Source: Candidatus Omnitrophota bacterium
Lineage (GTDB): Bacteria > Omnitrophota > Gorgyraeia > Tantalellales > Tantalellaceae
DNA length: 64,000 nt
Assembly: GCA_016783605.1 (NCBI GenBank)
Contig: JADHWG010000001.1
Coordinates: 4,712 to 68,711, forward strand
Direction: 5' to 3'
Below are positions 894 to 64,000 of the stretch, in pieces (position 1 is the first letter of the stretch; the number at the start of each line of letters is the position of its first letter). The notes below the pieces were generated by a model. That model was not told the origin of the DNA. It did not search any database and saw only the letters and a program-made list of their open reading frames with translations. A program made the translations under genes and the position numbers.

Positions 894-1355
894 GTTTTTT
901 GGGGGAGGGTGAGTGTAAATTGCTTTAGTTCGCTTTGTAAGGACTTATTTTCTTTGGGTTTTGTGATTGAGAGAGGGAAAAGAGGCGTTATCAGGCTTTT
1001 TCATAGGTTAATTTTTTTTGTAAACTTTTTATACCGAAAGTTGCCTCTTGCTTCTGGTATGATATACTTGTTCTTATAGGGACTTGCACTTTTAGATCTC
1101 ACAGCTCAGACATGGGTCTTTTATAGCTTTTCTCGCCCCCTTTCAAAACAAAAAAATAAAGGTGAAAGAAAAGCTAACTTTTAAAACAGCTTACATAAGC
1201 TGTTTTTTTTATTTGTATTAGCGTAAAGGACACCCACAAGGGGGTGCCACCACTGTATATCAAATTAACTCCCAATTCGTTACCCGAATTGTGACAATAC
1301 GCGCCCACGATCATTATTTCGTTCAAATGGTTTGTATCCTAAAATTTCGTAGGGT

Positions 1356-1584
1356 ATACATTGTCACAATTCAGGTAACAAATCGATAGTGACCGGAACC
1401 ACCCTAACCATTTTGTCCCCTCGTCAATTAATCGGACAAGGCAGGCCTTCCCTACGAATAATATAAAACATGCCCAACAAATCCGTAGGGGCCGGGCCTG
1501 CCCGGCCCTTTTATTCCCATCATCATTGATAACCTTTATATGTCGGTGCCATTATAGACGGTTACCTCAATTGTGACAATGTAC
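1356..1584. mobile_element. MITE-2 copy (~229 bp), with an additional orphan right TIR at ~1281..1300
   Basis: Same TIRs and internal blocks as 61488..61752. Confidence 0.7.
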
Positions 1585-1611
1585 AAGGGGCGCCCTTTAT
1601 GGGTGCCCTTA

Positions 1612-3548: not shown

Positions 3549-3714
3549 TAGTTGTAAACAAAATACATCAAAATGGGCATATTTGAGGGATAAAGGGCAC
3601 GGCATGCCGTGCCCCTACGAAGTTGCGGGCGGAGTATAAATATTTTTGGTTGGGCATTGTTGAGATTGCTTCGTCCCCGGGGGACGCCTGCGGGGACGAA
3701 GCAATTTTTGGATG

Positions 3715-29693: not shown

Positions 29694-29960
29694 CTGGCCC
29701 CTCGACTCGCTCTTCGAGCTCGCTCGGGGTCAAATATAAAAAGTCCCGATTAAGTGTTTTTTAACCGGGACTTCTTTTTCGCGTTACGTTTTTCTGGTCC
29801 CTCAACTCGCTAAAATGCTCCTTCTCGTCGCATTTCTTCACGCTCGTTCGGGATCAATTTTCGCGTTCGCGAAAATTGGTCCCTCAACTCGCTAAAATGC
29901 TCCTTCTCGTCGCATTTCTTCACGCTCGTTCGGGATCAATTTTCGCGTTCGCGAAAATTG
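29694..29960. repeat. tandem repeat: one degenerate plus two perfect 82-bp units abutting the tRNA-Lys 3' end
   Basis: The unit gtccctcaactcgctaaaatgctccttctcgtcgcatttcttcacgctcgttcgggatcaattttcgcgttcgcgaaaattg occupies 29797..29878 and 29879..29960. The last unit overlaps the tRNA CCA. On the tRNA strand each unit ends …GGGAC followed by CA. Confidence 0.8.
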
Positions 29961-33283: not shown

Positions 33284-33413
33284 GTAGGGGCACGGCATGC
33301 CGTGCCATTTACCGCACCAATCATCGATCCAATGAGGGCACGGCATGCCGTGCCATTTACCGCACCAATCATCGATCCAATGAGGGCACGGCATGCCGTG
33401 CCCCTACGAGGTT
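33284..33413. repeat. BIME-like array: three REP-A palindromes (GGGCACGGCATGCCGTGCC) separated by an identical 28-bp linker
   Basis: Cores at ~33288, 33336 and 33384; linker atttaccgcaccaatcatcgatccaatga. Its 'spacers' are identical, so it is not a CRISPR. Confidence 0.8.
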
Positions 33414-41418: not shown

Positions 41419-41487
41419 CTTTTGTTCGGTATCTTCTTGTTATACAATTACACTAATTAATCGTACATTTTAATGTTTTTCCATTTT

Positions 41488-41553
41488 ATTCGGGCACATG
41501 CAATGTGCCCCTACAATTCGGGCAAATCTATTCGGGCACATGCAATGTGCCCC
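41488..41553. repeat. family-C palindromes, two copies (TTCGGGCACATGCAATGTGCCC)
   Basis: Also present at 48496..48557 (two copies) and 49309..49330. Confidence 0.75.
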
Positions 41554-41736
41554 CACAATTTGTTTTGGCCGCCAAGCGGACCCATGTGTCCGCCCGCCTT
41601 GCTATCCCGGGATCTCGTATGTCCCCAACAATAGTTTAGTTTGAACACCTAAATATACGCATACACAAAGGCCAACACCTCGCTTCTTGAGAATATTGGC
41701 CTTTATAAATTTTTGGCTTCGGTTGTTTTTATTTTT

Positions 41737-48434: not shown

Positions 48435-48566
48435 TATGCAAACTCCAACTTTCGCAGGCTGTGCCCTATCCACCTACGAGGCGGAATAGCTTCTTGAGGC
48501 ACATGCAATGTGCCCGTTCGATTCGGGCAAATTTATTCGGGCACATTGCATGTGCCCGTTCGAATC

Positions 48567-49283
48567 TTATTTGTCCTTTTTCTCGTGAGTTGCTTCCTGA
48601 CCGGCTTCGGCTTCGGCTCCGGCTTCGCCTTCTTCTTCCTTCTTACCCTTCTTAATAACTTCCGGTTCTTCCGTTTCTTCTTCGGAAAGTTCTTCTTTTT
48701 CCTCTTCCTCTTCCACTTTCGGCAGATGTACGGAAGCTATAACCTTTTCAGGGTCGTCCAAAACATGAACGTCCTGCGGGAATTCCACATCTTTAATGTG
48801 AAGAGCGTCGCCGATATGCAAGTTCTCGACATTCACCGTGATCTCGTCCGGAATGGCCGTAGGCATACATTCCATCTCAATTTCCCAAACTACCTGCGCC
48901 AACACGCCTTCTTCCTCTTTCACTCCGACTGCTTCGCCTTTGGCGACAACCGGAACTTTAACTTTGAGTTTTTCCTTAAGAGAAATTTCGTGAAAATCAA
49001 CGTGTACCACTTCGTCACTGACCGGATCAAGCTGAATTTCCTGAACAATAACCGTTTTCTTCAGATGTTTTTCCTCACCGGTTATATCCATGCTGATGAT
49101 CGCGTTGCCGCCGGCTTCCGTATGAAGAGCTCTCCACAGATCTTTTTTACCGATCTGAACATTTGCTCCCAGCTTGCCTCCTCTGTATACTACGGCGGGA
49201 ATTTCTCCGATCTTTCTTAGATGCTTACATCCGCTTTTCCCGAAATCTTTTCGAACTACCGCTTTTAGTGTTATCTTTTCCAT
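48567..49283 (-). CDS. rplY: 50S ribosomal protein L25 / general stress protein Ctc, with acidic-Lys C-terminal extension
   Basis: L25 beta-barrel N-domain, Ctc-type C-domain, and a low-complexity tail. Confidence 0.8.
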   Translation of the reverse strand: MEKITLKAVVRKDFGKSGCKHLRKIGEIPAVVYRGGKLGANVQIGKKDLWRALHTEAGGNAIISMDITGEEKHLKKTVIVQEIQLDPVSDEVVHVDFHEISLKEKLKVKVPVVAKGEAVGVKEEEGVLAQVVWEIEMECMPTAIPDEITVNVENLHIGDALHIKDVEFPQDVHVLDDPEKVIASVHLPKVEEEEEKEELSEEETEEPEVIKKGKKEEEGEAGAEAEAGQEATHEKKDK

Positions 49284-49330
49284 TTACTTCACCTCTCCTT
49301 GATGTTTATTCGGGCACATGCAATGTGCCC

Positions 49331-50269
49331 CTACGATTCGAACAATGCACTTACCGATTCTTCATTATGAATGCGCCGTATCGCTTCCGAAAATAACGGG
49401 GCAACAGATAGTTGCACTATTTTGTCCAACTGTTTTGTTTTTTCCACCCTGATCGTATCCGTTACGACCAACTTTTTAATTTCAGATTTTTTTATTCTTT
49501 CTATCGCCGGTCCGCACAACACCGCGTGCGTGATCGCCGCGTAAATGTCTTTCGCGCCGTGCTTTTTAAGCGCACGCGCCGCTTCCGCCAAGCTTCCCGC
49601 GGTTGCCACGATATCGTCCACCATAATAACGTTTTGTCCTTTGACGTCGCCCATAATATGCATAACTTCGGCGTCAGTGTCATTTATGCGTCTTTTGTCA
49701 ACTATGGCCAGATCCGCGTTAAATCGTTTCGCGTAAGCTCTTGCCATTTTAATTCCGCCAACATCTGGAGAGACGATCACAACATCTTTCAATTTTTCCC
49801 GTTTAAAATATTCTTCAAATATGCTTATGGCATATAAATGATCCAACGGAATATCAAAAAATCCTTGAAGCTGTCCCGCGTGCAGATCCACTGTAAGAAC
49901 TCTCGTCGCTCCGGCACGCGTAAGCAAATTCGCGACAAGTTTCGCCGTAATGGGAACTCTCGGTTGATCTTTTCTGTCCTGCCTCGCGTATCCATAATAG
50001 GGCAAAACCGCGGTGATCCTGCGGGCGGACGCCCTTTTTACCGCGTCGATCATTATCAAAAGCTCCATAAGATTCTCATTCGCGGGATGTGAAGTGGACT
50101 GTACAAGAAACACATCTTTCCCTCTGACGTTTTGCTCTATCTTTACACGCGTTTCACCGTCACAAAACTTATCCACCTTTATCTTTCCCTGCCCGACTCC
50201 CAATTCTTCGCAAATATTTTTTGCCAACCTCGCGCACGTATTCCCAGCGAAAACCATTAATTTATCCAT
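49331..50269 (-). CDS. prs: ribose-phosphate pyrophosphokinase
   Basis: PRPP-binding loop DDIVATAGS and full-length 312 aa. Confidence 0.9.
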   Translation of the reverse strand: MDKLMVFAGNTCARLAKNICEELGVGQGKIKVDKFCDGETRVKIEQNVRGKDVFLVQSTSHPANENLMELLIMIDAVKRASARRITAVLPYYGYARQDRKDQPRVPITAKLVANLLTRAGATRVLTVDLHAGQLQGFFDIPLDHLYAISIFEEYFKREKLKDVVIVSPDVGGIKMARAYAKRFNADLAIVDKRRINDTDAEVMHIMGDVKGQNVIMVDDIVATAGSLAEAARALKKHGAKDIYAAITHAVLCGPAIERIKKSEIKKLVVTDTIRVEKTKQLDKIVQLSVAPLFSEAIRRIHNEESVSALFES

Positions 50270-54831: not shown

Positions 54832-55779
54832 TCATTTACGTTTTAACAGATCTTCCATTTCCCTTACGATATCATCCACCCGCAGCCCGAAATGTTCATA
54901 CAATTCGTCCGGAGCGCCGCTTACTCCAAATTTTCCCTTTATGCCCATAAGCTTCATAGGACAAGGCTTTTCCTGAACGATCACTTCCGCGACAGCGCTT
55001 CCCAGCCCGCCATAAACGGTATGTTCTTCCACTGTCAAGATCGCCCCGGTTTCTTCCGCCGCGTTTATTATTGTTTCCTTATCGATCGGACACGGTGTGT
55101 GCAAATTTATTACACGGATATTTATTCCTTTAGATTTCAAAACTTCCGCCGCTTCGATCGCGCTTGTAACCAAATGCCCGCACGCGACTATCGTAGCATC
55201 GTTTCCCTCGGTCACGACATCCGCTTTACCTATCTTAAATTCCGATGTTCGTTTTAATATCGGAACTTTGACGCGTCCCAATCTGATATATACGGGCCCG
55301 GGTATATCCGCCGCCTGGAGAGTCGCTAAATTCGCCTCTTCAGAATCTGCCGGAACGACAACCGTCATATTCGGAATGATCCTCATAAGCGCGATCTCCT
55401 CCAACGCTTGGTGGGTCGCCCCGTCTTCTCCGACTGAAATTCCTCCGTGACTTCCGATAATATTCACATTCAAATTCATGTATGCCACCGACACTCTGAC
55501 CTGATCCCACGCGCGTCCGGAAGCAAACGCTCCGAACGTACACGCGAACGGTATCTTTCCCGAAAGCGCCAGTCCCGCCGCCGCGCATATCATATCCTGT
55601 TCGGCTACACCATGACTGATAAAACGCTCCGGATATTTTTCTTTAAACCAATTGGCTCTCACCGATTCCGTTAGATCCGCGGATAAAACAACTACATCTT
55701 TATTGGTCCGCCCCAAGTCAAGTAAAGCTTTCCCGAATCCGTCCCTGGTTGCCTCGCGCTCCGCACCTTTTTCTTTCAT
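54832..55779 (-). CDS. transketolase, C-terminal (pyrimidine-binding) subunit
   Basis: Split-type transketolase C-half of 315 aa. Confidence 0.85.
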   Translation of the reverse strand: MKEKGAEREATRDGFGKALLDLGRTNKDVVVLSADLTESVRANWFKEKYPERFISHGVAEQDMICAAAGLALSGKIPFACTFGAFASGRAWDQVRVSVAYMNLNVNIIGSHGGISVGEDGATHQALEEIALMRIIPNMTVVVPADSEEANLATLQAADIPGPVYIRLGRVKVPILKRTSEFKIGKADVVTEGNDATIVACGHLVTSAIEAAEVLKSKGINIRVINLHTPCPIDKETIINAAEETGAILTVEEHTVYGGLGSAVAEVIVQEKPCPMKLMGIKGKFGVSGAPDELYEHFGLRVDDIVREMEDLLKRK

Positions 55780-55919
55780 TCATAACTCCCAATTTTATGT
55801 TACACGCTGCAGGTTTCAGGTTTCAGGTTTTCCCGCCGGAGGCGGGTCCGCCTCCGGCGGGAAACCTGAAACCTGAACCGTGTAACATGCAACGTATTCA
55901 CCAGCCAACTATCAACCGG

Positions 55920-56978
55920 CTAACCAAAATACCCCGGCGGTGCCTGTACAACTTTTTTTACCGACAACTTCTTTCTGCTAAAATTAAAAACATCTTTTTC
56001 CGTCGCTTTTAAACTCGCGTTTTCCAATTGGTCTTCCATTATTAGGAAATCAAATTTTTTAAATTTATATCCGCATACAACTCTGTTCACTATTTTCACG
56101 ATCTCTTCTATCTTTCTTCTGTGTTGTTTGGTTTTGTTTTCGCCCGCGTCGTGATCGGATATTTTAAACTTAACAAGAAAGGTTTTAATTTCGTCTGTCG
56201 AAATAAAATTACTTTCAACATTTTCGTATTTGAAAAGTTTTTTTAGATCTTCTTCACCGCGGAATCCGAGTTTTACTCGATTGGCGATCTGCGCCGCGAG
56301 AAACTCTTCCATCGTCGCGTCTTTCAAATAAAATTTCCCGCGCCAATATCCTATATCTGAAAGCCTTGTGGGCGCGCTTCTAAAAAAATCGTCCATCACG
56401 CCTTGGCGCGTTTTTTCTTCCACGCTGAAATTGTCAAATATTTTTTCTATCGATCTTTCTTTTTTTGCTTGAGGCGTAAGATTGATACTGAAAAGCGTGC
56501 GTCTAAACGATTCGCTTCTCGAAATATTTCGATACATCCCAAGCTTCACGTCTTCGACATATTTTATTATCACAACCTGCAGTTCCGGAAGCCTGGCATC
56601 CTGCGCGATAACGCAATAAAACTTTATATCCGCGTCCGTACTGAGAACAACTCGTGACGCGATGAGCAGAAGATTACTGATCGTATCCCAAGCTTCGGAA
56701 CTGATGCCGAGTCCCGCGTCAAGAAGCCCTTCCATAGGATAATATATTCCCATCGTCCGGCCTTTTACCGTAACGTCGACGTCCATGTCGTATTCGTCTT
56801 TGCAAACGAACTTGACGGCTTCGGGAAGCTTTTCTTTGGGGAATGACGGTTCGCATCCGGAAAAAGAAAATAATATCGCCATTAAACCAAGATAGGCCGC
56901 GCTTTCAGCGAAAATATTTTTAAAACCGCGTTTACGCACGGTTATCCCACTTTTTTTCTTCTTCTTCGTCAGATTCAT
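55920..56978 (-). CDS. lipoprotein of unknown function
   Basis: Lipobox LFSFSGC after a basic N-terminus; overlaps the end of the FtsH-like gene. Confidence 0.45.
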   Translation of the reverse strand: MNLTKKKKKSGITVRKRGFKNIFAESAAYLGLMAILFSFSGCEPSFPKEKLPEAVKFVCKDEYDMDVDVTVKGRTMGIYYPMEGLLDAGLGISSEAWDTISNLLLIASRVVLSTDADIKFYCVIAQDARLPELQVVIIKYVEDVKLGMYRNISRSESFRRTLFSINLTPQAKKERSIEKIFDNFSVEEKTRQGVMDDFFRSAPTRLSDIGYWRGKFYLKDATMEEFLAAQIANRVKLGFRGEEDLKKLFKYENVESNFISTDEIKTFLVKFKISDHDAGENKTKQHRRKIEEIVKIVNRVVCGYKFKKFDFLIMEDQLENASLKATEKDVFNFSRKKLSVKKVVQAPPGYFG

Positions 56979-58635
56979 CCGGTCCGGAACTTTCTTTTTC
57001 CCCATATTCTGAAAAAATGGCTATAATTTCATCATATTCCAACTCTTCTCGCTCTAAAAGTTCCGAAGCGAATCTGTCAAGGATCGTTCTTTTTTCCATA
57101 AGCACCGTTTCAACTTCTTTCAAACATCCTGACATTATTTTGTTCGTATCTTTATTCAGCGCGATCCTGACATCTTCGGAAAGCTGTTCTTTCGGTATTA
57201 TGGTAAAATCTCCGATGAGACCGGATTTGCCCATTCCAAGCTGCCAAACCATGCTGTGGGCTATCCCCATCGCCTTTTGAAAATCAGAACTCACACCGCT
57301 GGTGGAAGTCCCGAATTTGATTTTTTCCGCCGCGAATCCGCCGAAAGCTATCATTATGTCCGAAAACAAATGTTCTCTGCTATGAGAATGCAGTTCTTCT
57401 TTTTCCGGCGACCATACAACACCAAGCGCGCCTTTTCTCGGAATAATACTCGCTTTAAAAACGCTTTTTGACGGCGCTTTCAAAAACGTCGTGATCAAGT
57501 GTCCGGACTCATGATACGCCGTCATTTCTCTTTCCTTGGGCGTTACCGTAAGACGATATTTGATACCGAGATCGACTCTCTCAAAAGCTTCACTTATTTC
57601 CTTAAGTCCGATAACGGGTTTTCTGTGTCTGGTCGCGATAAGCGCGGATTCTTTCACGATGTTCGCGATATCCGCCGGACTTTTGCCGACGGCGCGGCGC
57701 GCGAGACGTCCTAAATTAAGTTCCGACTCCGCTTTCACTTTATCAAGATAGAATTTAAAAAGTTCTTCTCTATCATCCTGAGACGGTTTTGTTATCATAA
57801 TTTTTCTGTCAAATCTGCCGGGCCTGAGAAGCGCCTGATCGAGATGCTGTTCATACGCGTTGGTCGCGCCGATCACAACGATATTGTCGTCTTTACCTTT
57901 AAGTCCGTCCATTTCGGCAAGCATCTGATTTAATGTGCTGTTGGTTTCCTGACCTCCCATAAAACTGAATGTTCTGCTTCTTCCTATTGCGTCTATTTCA
58001 TCGATGAAAATAATACATCCTCCGAACCCGTACGCCAGATCCCGCGCCTTTTTGAACAGTTTTCTGACGCGTGAAGCACCCACTCCTACAAACACTTCCA
58101 CAAATTCGCTTCCCGACATCGAAATGAACGGCATATTCGCCTCCGTCGATATCGCTTTAGCCAAATATGTTTTTCCGCATCCCGGAGGTCCCAACATAAG
58201 AAGCCCTTTAATTACGTTGCCGCCCATTTTTTGTACCCCTGCTCTATCCCGGATGAGCTGAACGATCTCGCCGGCCTCTTGTTTCGCGTCATGCATGCCG
58301 ATAACATCGTTCCATTTTATCGCTATGTCTTTGCCTTTTATGGGTGCCTTATCCAATTTGGCAAAACCGCCGCGCATAAAGGTTAAATACATAAACACGA
58401 ATATCCCGGCATGGATCCCGGCCATTATGAATTGAACCGGCATTGTCGCAATGGTCATCTTGCGATAAAAGGATTCTAAAGACATTAGCCCTATCACCGA
58501 AAGGATCAAAAGGATAATGACGATCGCAGAGACGATGATCATAGTTTTGTATTGCCTGATATACATCCTTATTCTTCTGCTAAGCATGATCATATTTTTT
58601 TCTCCTTTTTTCGTTACTGATAATTCTCTCGCCAT
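56932..58635 (-). CDS. FtsH-like AAA+ ATPase / M41 zinc metalloprotease paralog with very short periplasmic loop
   Basis: Two TM helices ~15 aa apart; Walker A GPPGCGKT; second region of homology; HESGH in an M41-like domain; 567 aa. Confidence 0.7.
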
Positions 58636-58724
58636 CCGCCGGCGATCAAAATTGACGACGCGCCTTTCGCCGGCAACCTCGTAGGGGCACGGCGTGCCGT
58701 GCCCCTACGTTGATTATCCGATCC

Positions 58725-58905
58725 GTTTTTTCTCTTTGTCAATTAATCGGACAAGGCAGGCCTTGTCCCTACGAACAATATAAAACATACCCAACAAATC
58801 GTAGGGGCCGGGCCTGCCCGGCCCTTTTATCCCCATCATCATTGATAACCTTTATGTGTTGGTGCCATTATAAACGGTTACCTGAATTGTGACAATATAC
58901 ACCCT
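58725..58905. mobile_element. MITE-2, 5'-truncated copy, flanked by a 35-bp duplication of the transketolase-N 3' end
   Basis: Right TIR ggttacctgaattgtgacaat is present and the left TIR is absent. Direct repeats ttgattatcc(g/a)atccgttttttctctt(t/c)gtcaa lie at ~58711..58745 and ~58906..58940. Confidence 0.65.
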
Positions 58906-58917
58906 ACCATTTATTGA

Positions 58918-59757
58918 TTATCCAATCCGTTTTTTCTCTTCGTCAAGCTCTTTTAACGCTTCCGTTAACTCTTCTTTTTTCGGCGCGATACCGTGCCACT
59001 GGGCTTTGTTCTCTATGAACGATACGCCTTTTCCTTTTGTCGTATTCGCGATCAAAATTGATGGAGCACCTTTCGCTTTTCGCGCGTCAGAAAATCCTTT
59101 TCTCAGTTCTTCAAAATCATGCCCGTCGACTTCCGTCACGTGCCATCCGAAACTTTTCCATTTGCCGCAATATTCTCCCAGATCCATCACGTCGCAGCAG
59201 AATCCGTCTATTTGAAGTTTGTTAAAATCAATTATCCCGCACAAGTTATCAAGTTTGTAATGCGCCGCCGTCATCGCCGCTTCCCAAACTTGGCCTTCAT
59301 TGGTTTCTCCGTCTCCCATTAAACAATAAACGCGGGAATCCACATTGTCCATTTTGTCCGCGATCGCCATTCCGAGGGCTACCGAAAGCCCCTGCCCCAA
59401 AGATCCGCTCGATATTTCCACTCCGGGAAGACCGAATTGCGGATGGCCCTGAAGGCGCGACCCTAACTGTCTCAAAGTCCCGAGCTCCTCTTTTTGAAAA
59501 AAACCTTTCTCGGCCAATACCGCGTATAGTGCCGGACATCCATGTCCTTTTGAAAGAATAAATTTGTCGCGGTTTCTTTCTTTCCAATTTTCCGGAGTAA
59601 TGTCCATCTCTTCGAAATATAAAGCCACCAAAATTTCCACTATCGATAACGACCCGCCCGTATGCCCGCTTCCGGCTTTTGACAGCATCGTCAATACATC
59701 CCGCCTTATTTCTATCGCTTTCTCCTTCAGTTCGCCCGTCGTGATCTTTTCTTTCAT
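58918..59757 (-). CDS. transketolase, N-terminal (TPP-binding) subunit
   Basis: GSGHTGGSLS and GDGE…NEG TPP motifs. I moved the start to MKEKITT because the K-rich track N-terminus is unlikely. Confidence 0.85.
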   Translation of the reverse strand: MKEKITTGELKEKAIEIRRDVLTMLSKAGSGHTGGSLSIVEILVALYFEEMDITPENWKERNRDKFILSKGHGCPALYAVLAEKGFFQKEELGTLRQLGSRLQGHPQFGLPGVEISSGSLGQGLSVALGMAIADKMDNVDSRVYCLMGDGETNEGQVWEAAMTAAHYKLDNLCGIIDFNKLQIDGFCCDVMDLGEYCGKWKSFGWHVTEVDGHDFEELRKGFSDARKAKGAPSILIANTTKGKGVSFIENKAQWHGIAPKKEELTEALKELDEEKKRIG

Positions 59758-61289: not shown

Positions 61290-61487
61290 TTAAGTTATAC
61301 CTTTCTCTTCTTGTGCCGGTCTCTTCTCATTCTTTTTTTCCGTTTATGTCTTTTAACTTTTTTTATTTTTCTTTTCTTCCCACAGGGCATGCCGTTTCCA
61401 CCTCCTTAAATCGGCTGTAACATAGTAGGGTACAGACATGCCTGTACCTACCCTATTAACGGACAAGCACAGGGGCCTGTCCCTTGT

Positions 61488-61752
61488 ATATTGTCACAAT
61501 TCAGGTAACAAATCGATAGTGACCGGGGGGCCACCCGACCATTTTATCCCCTCTTCAATTAATCGGACAAGGCAGGCCTTGTCCCTACGAATAATATAAA
61601 GCATATCACAACAAATCGTACGAATAATATAAAACATGCCACAACAAATCGTAGGGGCCGGGCCTGCCCGGCCCTTTTATCCCCATCATTATTGATAACC
61701 CTTATATGTTGGTGTCATTATAAACGGTTACCTGAATTGTGACAATGTACAC
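61488..61752. mobile_element. MITE-2, complete copy (~265 bp; TIR ATTGTCACAATTCAGGTAAC)
   Basis: Left TIR tattgtcacaattcaggtaac and right TIR gttacctgaattgtgacaatgtaca. Internal conserved blocks aattaatcggacaaggcaggccttgtccctacga and gtaggggccgggcctgcccggccc. Confidence 0.75.
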
Positions 61753-63926: not shown

Positions 63927-63956
63927 TCACGGGCGGGGAAACGTGCGCCACTTGTA

Positions 63957-64000
63957 CATTGTCATAATTCAGGTAACAAATCGATAGTGACCGGGACCAC
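63957..64000. mobile_element. MITE-2, left end of a further copy running off the window
   Basis: acattgtcataattcaggtaacaaatcgatagtgaccggg. Confidence 0.6.

Follow-up and report, generated by a model that had tools for sequence, protein, structure and literature searches.

Microhomology-mediated illegitimate recombination and template switching are sources of duplications and deletions with short junctions, of templated insertions, and of transposon excision between target repeats. REP-targeting insertion sequences (ISs) have been described in Proteobacteria for elements such as IS1397/ISKpn1, IS621, ISPpu9/10, ISPa11 and ISRm22, and belong to the IS3, IS110, IS4, IS256 and IS5 families (Tobes and Pareja 2006, PMC1525189). 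Members of the IS481 family duplicate 2–15 bp of their target, most commonly 6 bp (PMC10045372). The duplications made by IS481, IS1202 and IS481EU elements fall into discrete classes about 10 bp apart (4–6, 15–17 and 24–29 bp), and more than one class can occur in a family (Kojima and Bao 2023, PMC10045372).

We analysed a stretch of 64,000 nucleotides from a Candidatus Omnitrophota bacterium (hereafter the window, to which all coordinates refer), in which a truncated MITE copy lies between a transketolase gene and a repeated copy of that gene's end.

The tktN–ftsH spacer and its duplicated gene end

The spacer under study separates two genes on the minus strand:

58918–59757, minus strand: tktN, transketolase N-terminal subunit, 279 aa (stop TAA at 58918–58920; Pfam Transketolase_N; exact protein MBL7072206.1)
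56932–58593, minus strand: downstream gene for an ftsH-like AAA/M41 protease, 553 aa (Pfam AAA and Peptidase_M41; ATG at 58593–58591 after AGGAG)

The tktN orthologues have a common C-terminus (...ALKELDEEKKR..), and the ftsH start is called identically in public assemblies, with a conserved leader from 58617. The spacer gave no match to a known RNA element (best Rfam match E 0.42), and no source was found for the 22 nt at 58620–58641, which are unique in the window.

Within the spacer, a 33-nt direct repeat (31/33 identical, blastn E 8e-11) brackets a one-ended MITE copy:

58914–58946, minus strand: Y, right copy of the repeat and genuine tktN end (repeat comparison and alignment with relatives)
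58710–58742, minus strand: Y', left copy of the repeat, an orphan gene-end copy (repeat comparison)
58909–58913, minus strand: ancestral 3' flank, TAAAT in the gene direction (TGAAT in relatives; homology to relative L053 runs through 58909)
58743–58901, minus strand: truncated MITE-2 copy, 159 nt (alignment with complete copies, 93–95% identity, and comparison with the parent IS in L013)
58736–58742, no strand: joint between Y' and the MITE interior, with microhomology (alignment with complete copies and the gene end)

The left copy reads TTGATTATCCGATCCGTTTTTTCTCTTTGTCAA and the right copy TTGATTATCCAATCCGTTTTTTCTCTTCGTCAA; the window holds no further copy of the 33-mer, and none is expected from 100 shuffles. 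If one 5-nt indel is allowed, the duplication reaches a CCCTAC box (58703–58742 versus 58902–58946). Y takes in the last eight codons of tktN (DEEKKRIG) with 2 nt of the Leu codon before them, the stop and 4 nt of 3' flank, and equals the orthologous sequence of relatives at 92% identity, save for a 1-nt frameshift common to Y and Y'. Two changes in Y' are absent from both Y and the relatives, and the TAAAT flank adjoins Y only and is missing beside Y'. Since Y agrees with its orthologues, Y' carries two extra changes and the lineage-specific frameshift is in both, Y is the true end of tktN, an ending that its orthologues share, and Y' is a later, unconstrained copy. These comparisons bear out the initial annotation's view of the left copy as an orphan pseudo-3'-end, its placement of the repeat and its choice of the right copy as the genuine gene end; the repeat is a 33-mer at 31/33, not a 35-mer, and Y covers eight codons plus 2 nt of Leu, not ten codons.

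A 42-aa chimeric ORF (58714–58842, ending in ...KEKKRIG and a stop) is a possible annotation trap; orphan gene-end copies and small chimeric ORFs can mislead annotators.

The spacer recurs in at least five independent public assemblies. Its 324 nt are base-for-base the same in contigs of ERZ24794672, ERZ24794676 and ERZ24794666 and differ by one SNP in ERZ24794679 (SPAdes contigs from four samples, coverage about 4–57x). A Logan contig from ERR13325269 extends to the right TIR of the MITE (window 58878), and one from SRR12042682 begins inside the MITE and crosses the joint between MITE and duplicate. The MITE, Y', REP and X' joints are read through with 0 mismatches by a Logan contig from another sequencing project. 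MITE copies do break assemblies elsewhere (MAG PL25a_bin.80, L023), which would lend itself to a chimeric assembly path through repeated MITE copies; the agreement among four samples and with the contig from the other project makes such an artefact extremely improbable, as do the two SNPs of Y' itself, which reads must carry. An apparent length polymorphism at about 55810–55830, between the window and contig L020, was rejected, being only a scaffold gap filled with Ns within an array of heptamers.

The MITE-2 family, its parent IS and its REP target

The MITE copy in the spacer retains only one TIR (58877–58901) and so lacks the two ends of a mobilisable element; the retained end (TIR plus TGTAT, 58877–58901) is the one that precedes the transposase gene in the parent IS. 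It has lost the opposite TIR together with about 40 nt more (about 65–72 nt in all), and the gene-end copy stands in their place. This stump is a dead remnant of a MITE-2 family member and is no longer mobile. The family's TIR, ATTGTCACAATTCAGGTAAC, is found at 58877–58896 (minus strand), at both ends of 1360–1580 and 61490–61746, and at 63958; a solo TIR copy lies at 1279–1298. The other copies in the window are as follows:

61485–61751, minus strand: complete MITE-2 copy A, 4-bp duplication CCCT, directly after the hisG stop (empty site seen in a relative)
1355–1585, minus strand: complete MITE-2 copy B, 4-bp duplication AGGG (coordinates including terminal TGTAY)
63953–64000, minus strand: MITE-2 copy D, cut by the window end (complete in public contig L020)

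The initial annotation had recognized all of these. Its partial copy at 63957 corresponds to copy D, whose TIR lies at 63958, and the complete copies that it placed at 1356..1584 and 61488..61752 are present, with bounds that become 1355–1585 and 61485–61751 once TGTAY is included. The truncated copy does lack its left TIR, as that annotation held, and its span is 58743–58901 of MITE-specific sequence, not 58725..58905.

The complete copies in the window are 231–267 bp long with 25-nt TIRs, and the family is short, non-coding and present in several copies, as befits MITEs; others in metagenomes range from 163 to 364 bp, and family matches also occur in Auribacterota MAGs. In MAG PL25a_bin.80 TIRs stand at contig ends, and L023 ends inside a TIR.

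Contig L013 carries a 1046-bp element with the same 25–29-nt TIRs and one 324-aa transposase ORF. This is a single ORF without frameshifted orfAB, with Pfam domains HTH_29/HTH_32, rve and rve_3, and its best NCBIfam match is NF033577 transpos_IS481 (E 4e-60), at 203.6 bits against a cut-off of 224 bits; the next match is IS3, at 73.8 bits. The termini (TGTAT...ATACA), the size and the 4-bp target duplication fit the IS481 family. The MITE and the L013 IS have in common the TIRs plus about 5 and about 12 nt of adjoining sequence, and besides both IS ends the MITE retains the promoter-like region and the start of the transposase gene. MITE-2 is derived by deletion from an IS481-like insertion sequence of roughly 1 kb.

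On either side of the stump and of Y' lie parts of a REP-like target:

58674–58709, no strand: REP-like element, perfect 14+2+14 palindrome CGTAGGGGCACGGC GT GCCGTGCCCCTACG (58680–58709) with outer arm CAACCT (58674–58679)
58902–58907, no strand: CCCTAC half of a REP target box, in which CCCT (58902–58905) is the family's usual 4-bp target, beside the intact MITE end

The motif GGGCACGGCATGCCGTGCCC occurs 13 times in the window (13 hairpins), in doublets and triplets with a 48-nt period. The hairpins are GC-rich, palindromic, extragenic, present in many copies and often paired, as are REP/BIME elements.

The MITE-2 family targets the GTAGGG/CCCTAC box flanking these hairpins and duplicates 4 bp. 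In 11 of 14 complete copies the duplication is AGGG/CCCT (once AGGT), within the GTAGGG–G-hairpin box, and the sequence abutting an element end is nearly always GTAGGG or hairpin-CCCT (window and 20+ loci in other genomes and metagenomes); single ends from other genomes show the same two flank types. For copy A, the empty site in relative L053, TAAGTAGGGACAGGCC, can be set against the filled site, TAGGTAGGG–MITE–AGGGACAGGCC, and the pair displays a 4-bp duplication. A fixed insertion orientation with respect to the REP box was considered and rejected, since the same IS end is found at either flank type in MAG PL25a_bin.80. No flank duplicate of comparable length was seen at the other family ends screened (window and 40 loci), and duplications of 15, 25 bp or more were absent both from the 14 complete copies and from all ends screened. 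In the tktN–ftsH spacer, the intact MITE end adjoins the CCCTAC at 58902–58907 and the left duplicate starts at the CCCTAC within the REP palindrome, at 58703–58708, so that the canonical target marks the start of the duplicated unit.

Origin of the gene-end copy

The left joint lies exactly at a TCGTCAA (now TTGTCAA) that the gene and the complete MITEs share, a 7-nt microhomology. It ends the sole significant similarity between the left part of the MITE and the gene end, and to the left of TCGTCAA the complete MITE copies carry unrelated sequence. A gene-like motif in the MITE interior, already pointed out by the initial annotation, is real: CCATTTTGTCCCCTCGTCAA matches the gene's CCGTTTTTTCTCTTCGTCAA at 16 of 20 positions (shuffle p about 0.01–0.02). 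That stretch, sitting at the very position in question, is what would speak for the left 33-mer being merely part of the MITE, with no host duplication. The alignments refute this: three complete copies have CCATTTTRTCCCCTCKTCAA after MITE sequence and a TIR, not TTGATTATCCGATCCG... after a REP hairpin, and Y' matches the gene end at 31/33 and the relatives' gene ends at 29/33. The two copies also match each other better than the MITE interior matches the left copy (31/33 against about 12–13 of 18–20), the comparison by which the initial annotation would have discarded the duplication; we give this possibility practically no weight.

We consider it probable that the locus arose by a canonical insertion followed by microhomology-mediated recombination or template switching. 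A MITE-2 copy would have inserted normally into the CCCT of a REP hairpin a few bases behind the tktN stop. A later illegitimate recombination or template switch between the TCGTCAA in the last codons of tktN and that in the MITE interior would have cost the element the part between its left CCCT and TCGTCAA, the far end (one TIR and about 40 nt) being replaced by a duplicate of the stretch that runs from CCCTAC to GTCAA. The exchange could have been a single unequal one, between a filled and an empty sister copy, or a short tandem duplication could have been followed by excision between the 4-bp repeats; by either route tktN would have kept its true end throughout. The canonical filled junction would then read GCCGTGCCCCT–TGTAY, that is GCCGTGCCCCT+TGTAYATTGTCACAA, with a complete MITE, and the empty site without a MITE would read GCCGTGCCCCTAC(C/G)ATTTATTGATTATCC.

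This reconstruction builds on what the sequences show directly: how the locus is put together, which of the two copies ends the gene, where the family inserts and that it duplicates 4 bp, the microhomology at which MITE and duplicate join, and the agreement between assemblies. The order of events and the molecular route we infer. A metagenome scan with a gene-end 25-mer retrieved no pre-insertion allele, searches for identical tktN, hisG and ftsH proteins brought up this allele alone, from a single population, and relatives L053–L056 (92%) and L001 and L002 (88% and 75%) have different spacers with no REP at the site, no MITE and no X'. As no empty-site or full-length-MITE allele of the locus was found among the sequences searched, the intermediate states are likewise reconstructed. 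Two details sit awkwardly with the simplest version. At the joint between Y' and the REP element the ancestral TAAAT is missing and a G stands in place of the right copy's C (ccctacG-ttgatt versus ccctacCATTTAttgatt), so that an extra small deletion and substitution, or another switch point, must be assumed; and Y' has diverged somewhat further from Y, with 3 substitutions plus one indel over about 40 nt, than the stump, with 2 private changes over 159 nt, has from its family, a borderline difference based on few sites.

The initial annotation had raised two origins, of which illegitimate recombination between the MITE interior and the gene end fits the joint at TCGTCAA, and an unusually long target duplication finds no support in the family, given the 4-bp duplications in 11 of 14 copies, the empty/filled pair and the absence of any other long flank repeat among the ends screened. 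The present structure alone does not formally separate the recombination route from a very long target duplication plus a microhomology deletion. By the latter account, an aberrant transposition duplicated 45 bp or more of target, with one strand transfer at CCCT and the other about four helical turns off, within the final tktN codons, and a deletion at the 7-nt microhomology then took away the far TIR along with about 40 nt of the MITE; before that, the far TIR would have abutted ...CTCTTCGTCAA(G..), in a junction CTCTTCGTCAAG...+TGTAYATTGTCACAA. We keep this account in play because IS481/IS1202 relatives make stepped duplications (PMC10045372). The gene-side repeat from CCCT to GTCAA measures 45 nt (58902–58946), in phase with a series of 4 + 4x10, and an intact end abutting CCCT is required here too. 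Against it, 45 bp or more exceeds the maximum reported for the superfamily (about 29 bp; PMC10045372), long duplications are absent from the complete copies and other ends screened, the second cut site has no AGGG/CCCT box, and the repeats do not both abut termini, the right one adjoining the TIR side and the left one the MITE interior. A second event, the deletion at TCGTCAA, would still be needed, and the patch X' would be left unexplained. We regard a long duplication as rather unlikely. If true, it would bear on the spacing of the two strand transfers in IS481-type transpososomes and would carry the stepped series of IS481-type transposases (4/15/25 bp) on to about 45 bp.

Direct repeats that include a gene's 3' end and flank an insert, with the gene restored, also recall site-specific integration by an element bearing the gene end as attP, with attL/attR repeats as the outcome. 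The 159-nt insert encodes no integrase or recombinase and is part of a DDE-transposon derivative; other copies show 4-bp duplications and lack such a repeat, and one boundary of the repeat falls at a microhomology within the element. We find integration hardly credible.

The spacer contains a second sequence that matches tktN:

58642–58670, minus strand: X', second patch derived from tktN (25/29 to 59048–59076, blastn E 3e-5; codons AKGAPSILIA)
59048–59076, minus strand: X, source of X' inside tktN, 100 nt further up the gene (GCG on both sides)

X' lies 40 nt from the Y' duplicate and forms a 31-nt insertion in the REP arm (58644–58674), between the copies of a 7-nt duplication, CGCCGGC (58637–58643 and 58668–58674), with 2–3-nt microhomologies at its joints. 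It is a templated insertion that fits the preferred course of microhomology recombination or template switching. With its patch of 24–29 nt, its 2–3-nt microhomologies and its 7-nt local duplication, X' shows the same kind of process at this spot. A milder variant of the long-duplication account is that the spacer records error-prone, multi-step template switching, set off when the transposase cut the site, in which both patches were copied from tktN; we regard this, too, as rather unlikely. This patch, the REP targeting and the start of the duplicate at the canonical CCCT had all escaped the initial annotation. A tandem duplication of the last 163 nt of the gene, as a common source of both patches, was rejected on the order X'–REP–Y'–MITE–Y–101 nt–X, and also because TAAAT follows Y, not the last copy. 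The idea that REP hairpins generally capture gene fragments was likewise rejected, a window-wide direct-repeat scan finding patches only here.

Two promoter-like sites face ftsH:

58867–58895, minus strand: promoter-like site in the retained TIR (TTGTCA-17-TATAAT, 11/12; a sigma-70-like consensus match only, which may not be the host's)
58713–58742, minus strand: promoter-like site inside Y' (TTGACA-18-GATAAT, 11/12; a sigma-70-like consensus match only)

The first of these consensus matches precedes the transposase gene in the parent IS, and a substitution in Y' changes TTGACG to TTGACA in the second. One or both might drive or modulate ftsH, and the arrangement might have been selected. Two 11/12 matches in the right direction, one improved by a substitution specific to Y', are in keeping with this, as is the orientation of the four MITE copies in the region, all of which (4/4) place the transposase-side end beside the stop codon of the gene before them and point towards the gene after them. 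Both sites match only a consensus, a sigma-70-like one that may not be that of Omnitrophota; relatives manage without the sites, the sample is one population, and four of four in one orientation is weak. We think co-option doubtful. Most likely, the extra gene-end copy and the immobile MITE stump are neutral scars in the tktN–ftsH spacer.

Relation to known elements and mechanisms

The locus itself, a neutral-looking scar, is of little consequence. As an example from an uncultivated phylum, it shows how an IS481-like element that targets REPs, and the MITEs derived from it, settle right behind stop codons, and how microhomology events then remodel insertion sites and leave the gene unharmed. 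The IS481-like family, with strict targeting of the GTAGGG box and a 4-bp duplication, adds a sixth IS family to the REP-targeting list.

Like IS481 elements and their MITE derivatives, the parent is about 1 kb long, has TGT...ACA termini and TIRs, duplicates a short target and encodes its HTH and rve (DDE) domains in a single ORF. Unlike them, it scores 203.6 bits, below the 224-bit cut-off, and duplicates 4 bp, not the commonest 6 bp (PMC10045372); the MITE-2 family strictly targets the REP box, and the tktN–ftsH copy is one-ended and immobile. As with the known REP-targeting ISs, insertion is into extragenic palindromes at a position fixed relative to the hairpin, whereas the MITE-2 parent is IS481-like and from Omnitrophota, and its site is a GTAGGG box at the foot of the hairpin.

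The long duplications of the IS481EU/IS1202 group (Kojima and Bao 2023, PMC10045372) come from the same transposase superfamily, and 45 nt would be in phase with their 10-bp steps. The known classes end at about 29 bp, however, the MITE-2 family shows none of 15 or 25 bp, and one repeat here stops at a microhomology within the element, an outcome that target duplication by itself does not yield. The resemblance to microhomology-mediated recombination lies in joints at 7-nt (Y') and 2–3-nt (X') microhomologies, in patches copied in direct orientation from 170–400 nt off, and in one boundary at the 4-bp target repeat; the locus differs in that the process is known here from its product alone and that the joint between Y' and the REP element needs an additional small change.

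A gene-end repeat beside a truncated MITE-2 copy

The direct repeat that the initial annotation placed around a copy of MITE-2 (a family of small non-autonomous elements) is real, with positions 58710–58742 and 58914–58946 identical at 31 of 33 sites. It is 33 nt long, not 35 as first given, and has no further copies within the window. The element does lack its left terminal inverted repeat (TIR), a single TIR lying between the repeats at 58877–58896 and followed by the terminal ATACA to 58901, while MITE-specific sequence starts at 58743 rather than 58725. All lie at or just behind the end of tktN, the transketolase N-terminal subunit gene, whose product is identical to MBL7072206.1 and whose close homologues are all Omnitrophota MAG proteins.

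Genes and spacer features (gene order, all minus strand: hisG, TPR protein gene, tktN, ftsH-like gene, further genes; spacer in plus-strand reading)
58918–59757, minus: tktN
56932–58593, minus: ftsH-like AAA/M41 protease gene
58594–58917: tktN–ftsH spacer, 324 nt, holding the repeat and the MITE-2 stump
58637–58643: CGCCGGC, after the ftsH leader
58644–58667: core of a second tktN-derived patch
58668–58674: CGCCGGC, second occurrence
58674–58709: REP arm and perfect palindrome, ending ...GTGCCCCTACG
58710–58742: left-hand repeat copy, ending ...TTGTCAA
58743–58901: MITE interior TTAATCGG... to TIR and ATACA
58902–58913: CCCTAC C ATTTA
58914–58946: right-hand repeat copy (2 nt of a Leu codon, last eight tktN codons, TAA stop, 4 nt of flank), then the remainder of tktN, including the patch source (59048–59076)

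Across its full length the spacer has the same sequence in SPAdes contigs of four ENA samples (one with 1 SNP), and a Logan contig, assembled from a run unrelated to these, spans the MITE, duplicate and REP joints with 0 mismatches; an assembly artefact is therefore ruled out.

The two transketolase halves are set apart, with the ftsH-like gene and a 339-aa protein (no Pfam match) between tktN and the Transket_pyr/Transketolase_C gene (window 56932–59757; 10114–11061 on L020, a public contig of the same region).

Orthologues end in ...ALKELDE(E/Q)EK.., and the right-hand copy is therefore a genuine coding end, as annotated, and not MITE-derived. In 92%-identical relatives (L053–L056) the sequence is ...gagaaaaaaagattggataatcaaTGAat..., and the lineage of the window carries a 1-nt frameshift (aaaaaacgg), common to both repeat copies, that makes an earlier TAA. 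Apart from this, the right-hand copy matches the relatives and continues into the ancestral flank (TAAAT for TGAAT). The left-hand copy, described initially as an orphan pseudo-3'-end, has two further, private substitutions and lacks that flank, and is therefore a later, unconstrained copy of the gene end. The frameshift turns ...KKRLDNQ-stop (L053 3812–3846, L054, L056) into ...KKRIG-stop (58918–58946), two codons earlier; the former stop persists out of frame as TAA at 58911–58913.

Nothing points to a function for this scar. Two candidate sigma-70-like sites, identified by consensus only, face ftsH (TTGTCA-17-TATAAT in the TIR and TTGACA-18-GATAAT in the left-hand copy, the latter improved by a substitution there), and an Rfam search of the spacer found no RNA element. 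A chimeric 42-aa ORF (58714–58842, minus) runs from a relic transposase start codon in the MITE in frame into the left-hand copy and ends ...DKEKKRIG-stop, like TktN; it is likely meaningless, and a trap for gene callers.

The MITE-2 family and its target

A genome-collection scan with the MITE-2 TIR led to a 1046-bp element on contig JAGLIU010000267 of an Omnitrophota MAG (L013), with TIRs of 25–29 nt identical to those of MITE-2 and one ORF of 324 aa (domains HTH, rve and rve_3). Among NCBIfam models this transposase scores highest with IS481 (203.6 bits, below the cut-off of 224); IS3 comes next with 74 bits. Both ends of the IS survive in MITE-2, and with them the promoter-like TTGTCA-17-TATAAT and the region where the transposase gene starts; MITE-2 is thus derived by deletion from an IS481-like IS.

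Other MITE-2 copies and REP-like hairpins in the window
1355–1585 and 61485–61751: complete MITE-2 copies B and A
63953 onward: MITE-2 copy D, interrupted by the window end
3595, 8964, 9645, 13188/13236, 33288–33403, 35459/35507, 47866, 58685, 62829: REP-like hairpins

Flanks of MITE-2 or IS ends in other MAGs always read ...GTAGGG/ or hairpin...CCCT/ (slashes mark boundaries). Fourteen complete copies were compared, from the window, from L013 and from metagenome loci; 11 of them are flanked by a perfect 4-bp duplication (AGGG or CCCT, in one case AGGT), one insertion being counted twice on two contigs. The duplication falls in the box at the base of a GC-rich hairpin. L053 retains the empty site of window copy A, which reads hisG-TAA GTAGGGACAGGCC..., and the filled site in the window reads hisG-TAG GTAGGG/MITE/AGGGACAGGCC....

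The target hairpins form a REP-like family, GGGCACGGCATGCCGTGCCC, with 13 copies within the window and outer arms CAACYTCGTAG and CTACGARGTTG, often arranged as inverted doublets, or a triplet, at 48-nt spacing; the hairpin at 58680–58709 bears both arms, like a collapsed doublet. The window also holds a second hairpin family, GGGCACATGCAATGTGCCC (41487–41560 and 48492–49338), a perfect tandem duplication (29795–29958, 2 x 82 nt, 100% identical), and a long palindrome, cccgccggaggcggacccgcctccggcggg (~55720–55830; L020 9949–10062), between inverted arrays of the heptamer AAACCTG and CAGGTTT. The copy number of this array is probably uncertain or variable, because the public scaffold has an N-gap within it.

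The autonomous IS in L013 (1–1050, its contig beginning 4 nt ahead of the IS) has inverted rather than direct flanks, CCCT left and AGGG right, and may be a recombinant of two copies or have been placed between two hairpins. Copy A has an internal 33-nt tandem duplication (61586–61651, TACGAATAATATAAA.CAT..CACAACAAATCG, 91%) not found in copies B, C (the stump) or D. A solo TIR fragment (1279–1298, GTTACCCGAATTGTGACAAT, then ACGCG CCCAC), 57 nt left of copy B, is probably a leftover of another insertion. All four MITE-2 copies of the region (1561–1585, 58877–58901, 61727–61751, L020 1569–1807) lie ~0–26 nt from the stop of the upstream minus-strand gene, and in 4/4 the end with the transposase-promoter-like site is the one closest to the stop and points towards the following gene, which may reflect chance or selection.

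Origin of the junction

The intact end of the stump adjoins CCCT, matching the family rule, and the expected partner flank (hairpin...CCCT/) is the palindrome at 58680–58709. If one 5-nt indel is allowed, the duplication thus extends from CCCTAC to GTCAA (left 40 nt, right 45 nt). At the far boundary the sequence is CCATTTTGTCCCCTCGTCAA/TTAATCGG in complete MITEs and CCGTTTTTTCTCTTCGTCAA/GCTC in the gene; the stump lacks ~65 nt (the 25-nt TIR and 40 nt). The annotated resemblance of MITE interior to gene end holds: the best local alignment of the left part of the MITE with the gene end has 16/20 identity (shuffle p ~0.01–0.02) and closes, at the joint, with 7 nt that match exactly. This supports illegitimate recombination, one of the two origins offered in the annotation.

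The simplest history we infer has two steps: MITE-2 would have inserted canonically into CCCT of the REP behind tktN, and an illegitimate exchange or template switch would then have joined the two TCGTCAA sites, of gene end and MITE interior. With an empty sister copy as partner, a single unequal exchange would yield the observed product; the reciprocal product would have a truncated tktN and be lost. Otherwise the same outcome would be reached if a short tandem duplication arose first and excision between the 4-bp repeats came later. The joint between left-hand copy and REP reads tcaa/cgtagggg, not tcaataaatggtagggg, and would require an additional 5-nt loss and one substitution, or another switch point.

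The annotation's other proposal, an unusually long target duplication, would here mean at least 45 bp and a later microhomology deletion. It is unlikely, yet carries some weight: IS481, IS1202 and IS481EU elements do make stepped duplications of ~4–6, 15–17 and 24–29 bp, even inside one family (PMC10045372), and a length of 45 nt would keep to the same phase. Against it, 45 bp exceeds all known cases, no MITE-2 family copy has a long duplication, and a second event is needed as well.

Two further candidates were rejected. The complete copies and the match to the relatives' gene ends contradict a left 33-mer belonging to MITE-2, and the 4-bp duplications of other copies and the empty/filled pair contradict att-type integration.

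A second patch and known REP-targeting elements

The second patch (58642–58670) matches tktN 59048–59076 at 25/29 positions (E 3e-5), has no further copy in the window and is not present in the relatives. Its sequence, taken in the direction of the gene, is ctacgaggttGCCGGCG[aaaggcgcgtcgtcaattttgatc]GCCGGCGgatggcg; once the 24 nt in brackets (aaaggcgcgtcgtcaattttgatc) and one GCCGGCG are removed, the REP arm matches that of the REP at 3595 (gttgcgggcgga) at 11/12 positions. The core's source in tktN has GCG on either side, and 7-nt repeats CGCCGGC (58637–58643 and 58668–58674) bracket the patch in the REP arm. From its sequence, the patch looks like a templated insertion with 2–3-nt microhomologies and a local duplication of 7 nt. 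The spacer thus records a further event of the class that gave the left-hand copy, and this patch cannot be a target duplication. Divergence from source is 14% for the patch and 6% for the left-hand copy, and the patch looks older, on few sites.

The MITE-2 copy behind tktN belongs to a known type of element, being an IS481-like, REP-targeting MITE; it is dead, and was remodelled by a process that is likewise of a known type. REP-targeting ISs are already known in five other families (PMC1525189).
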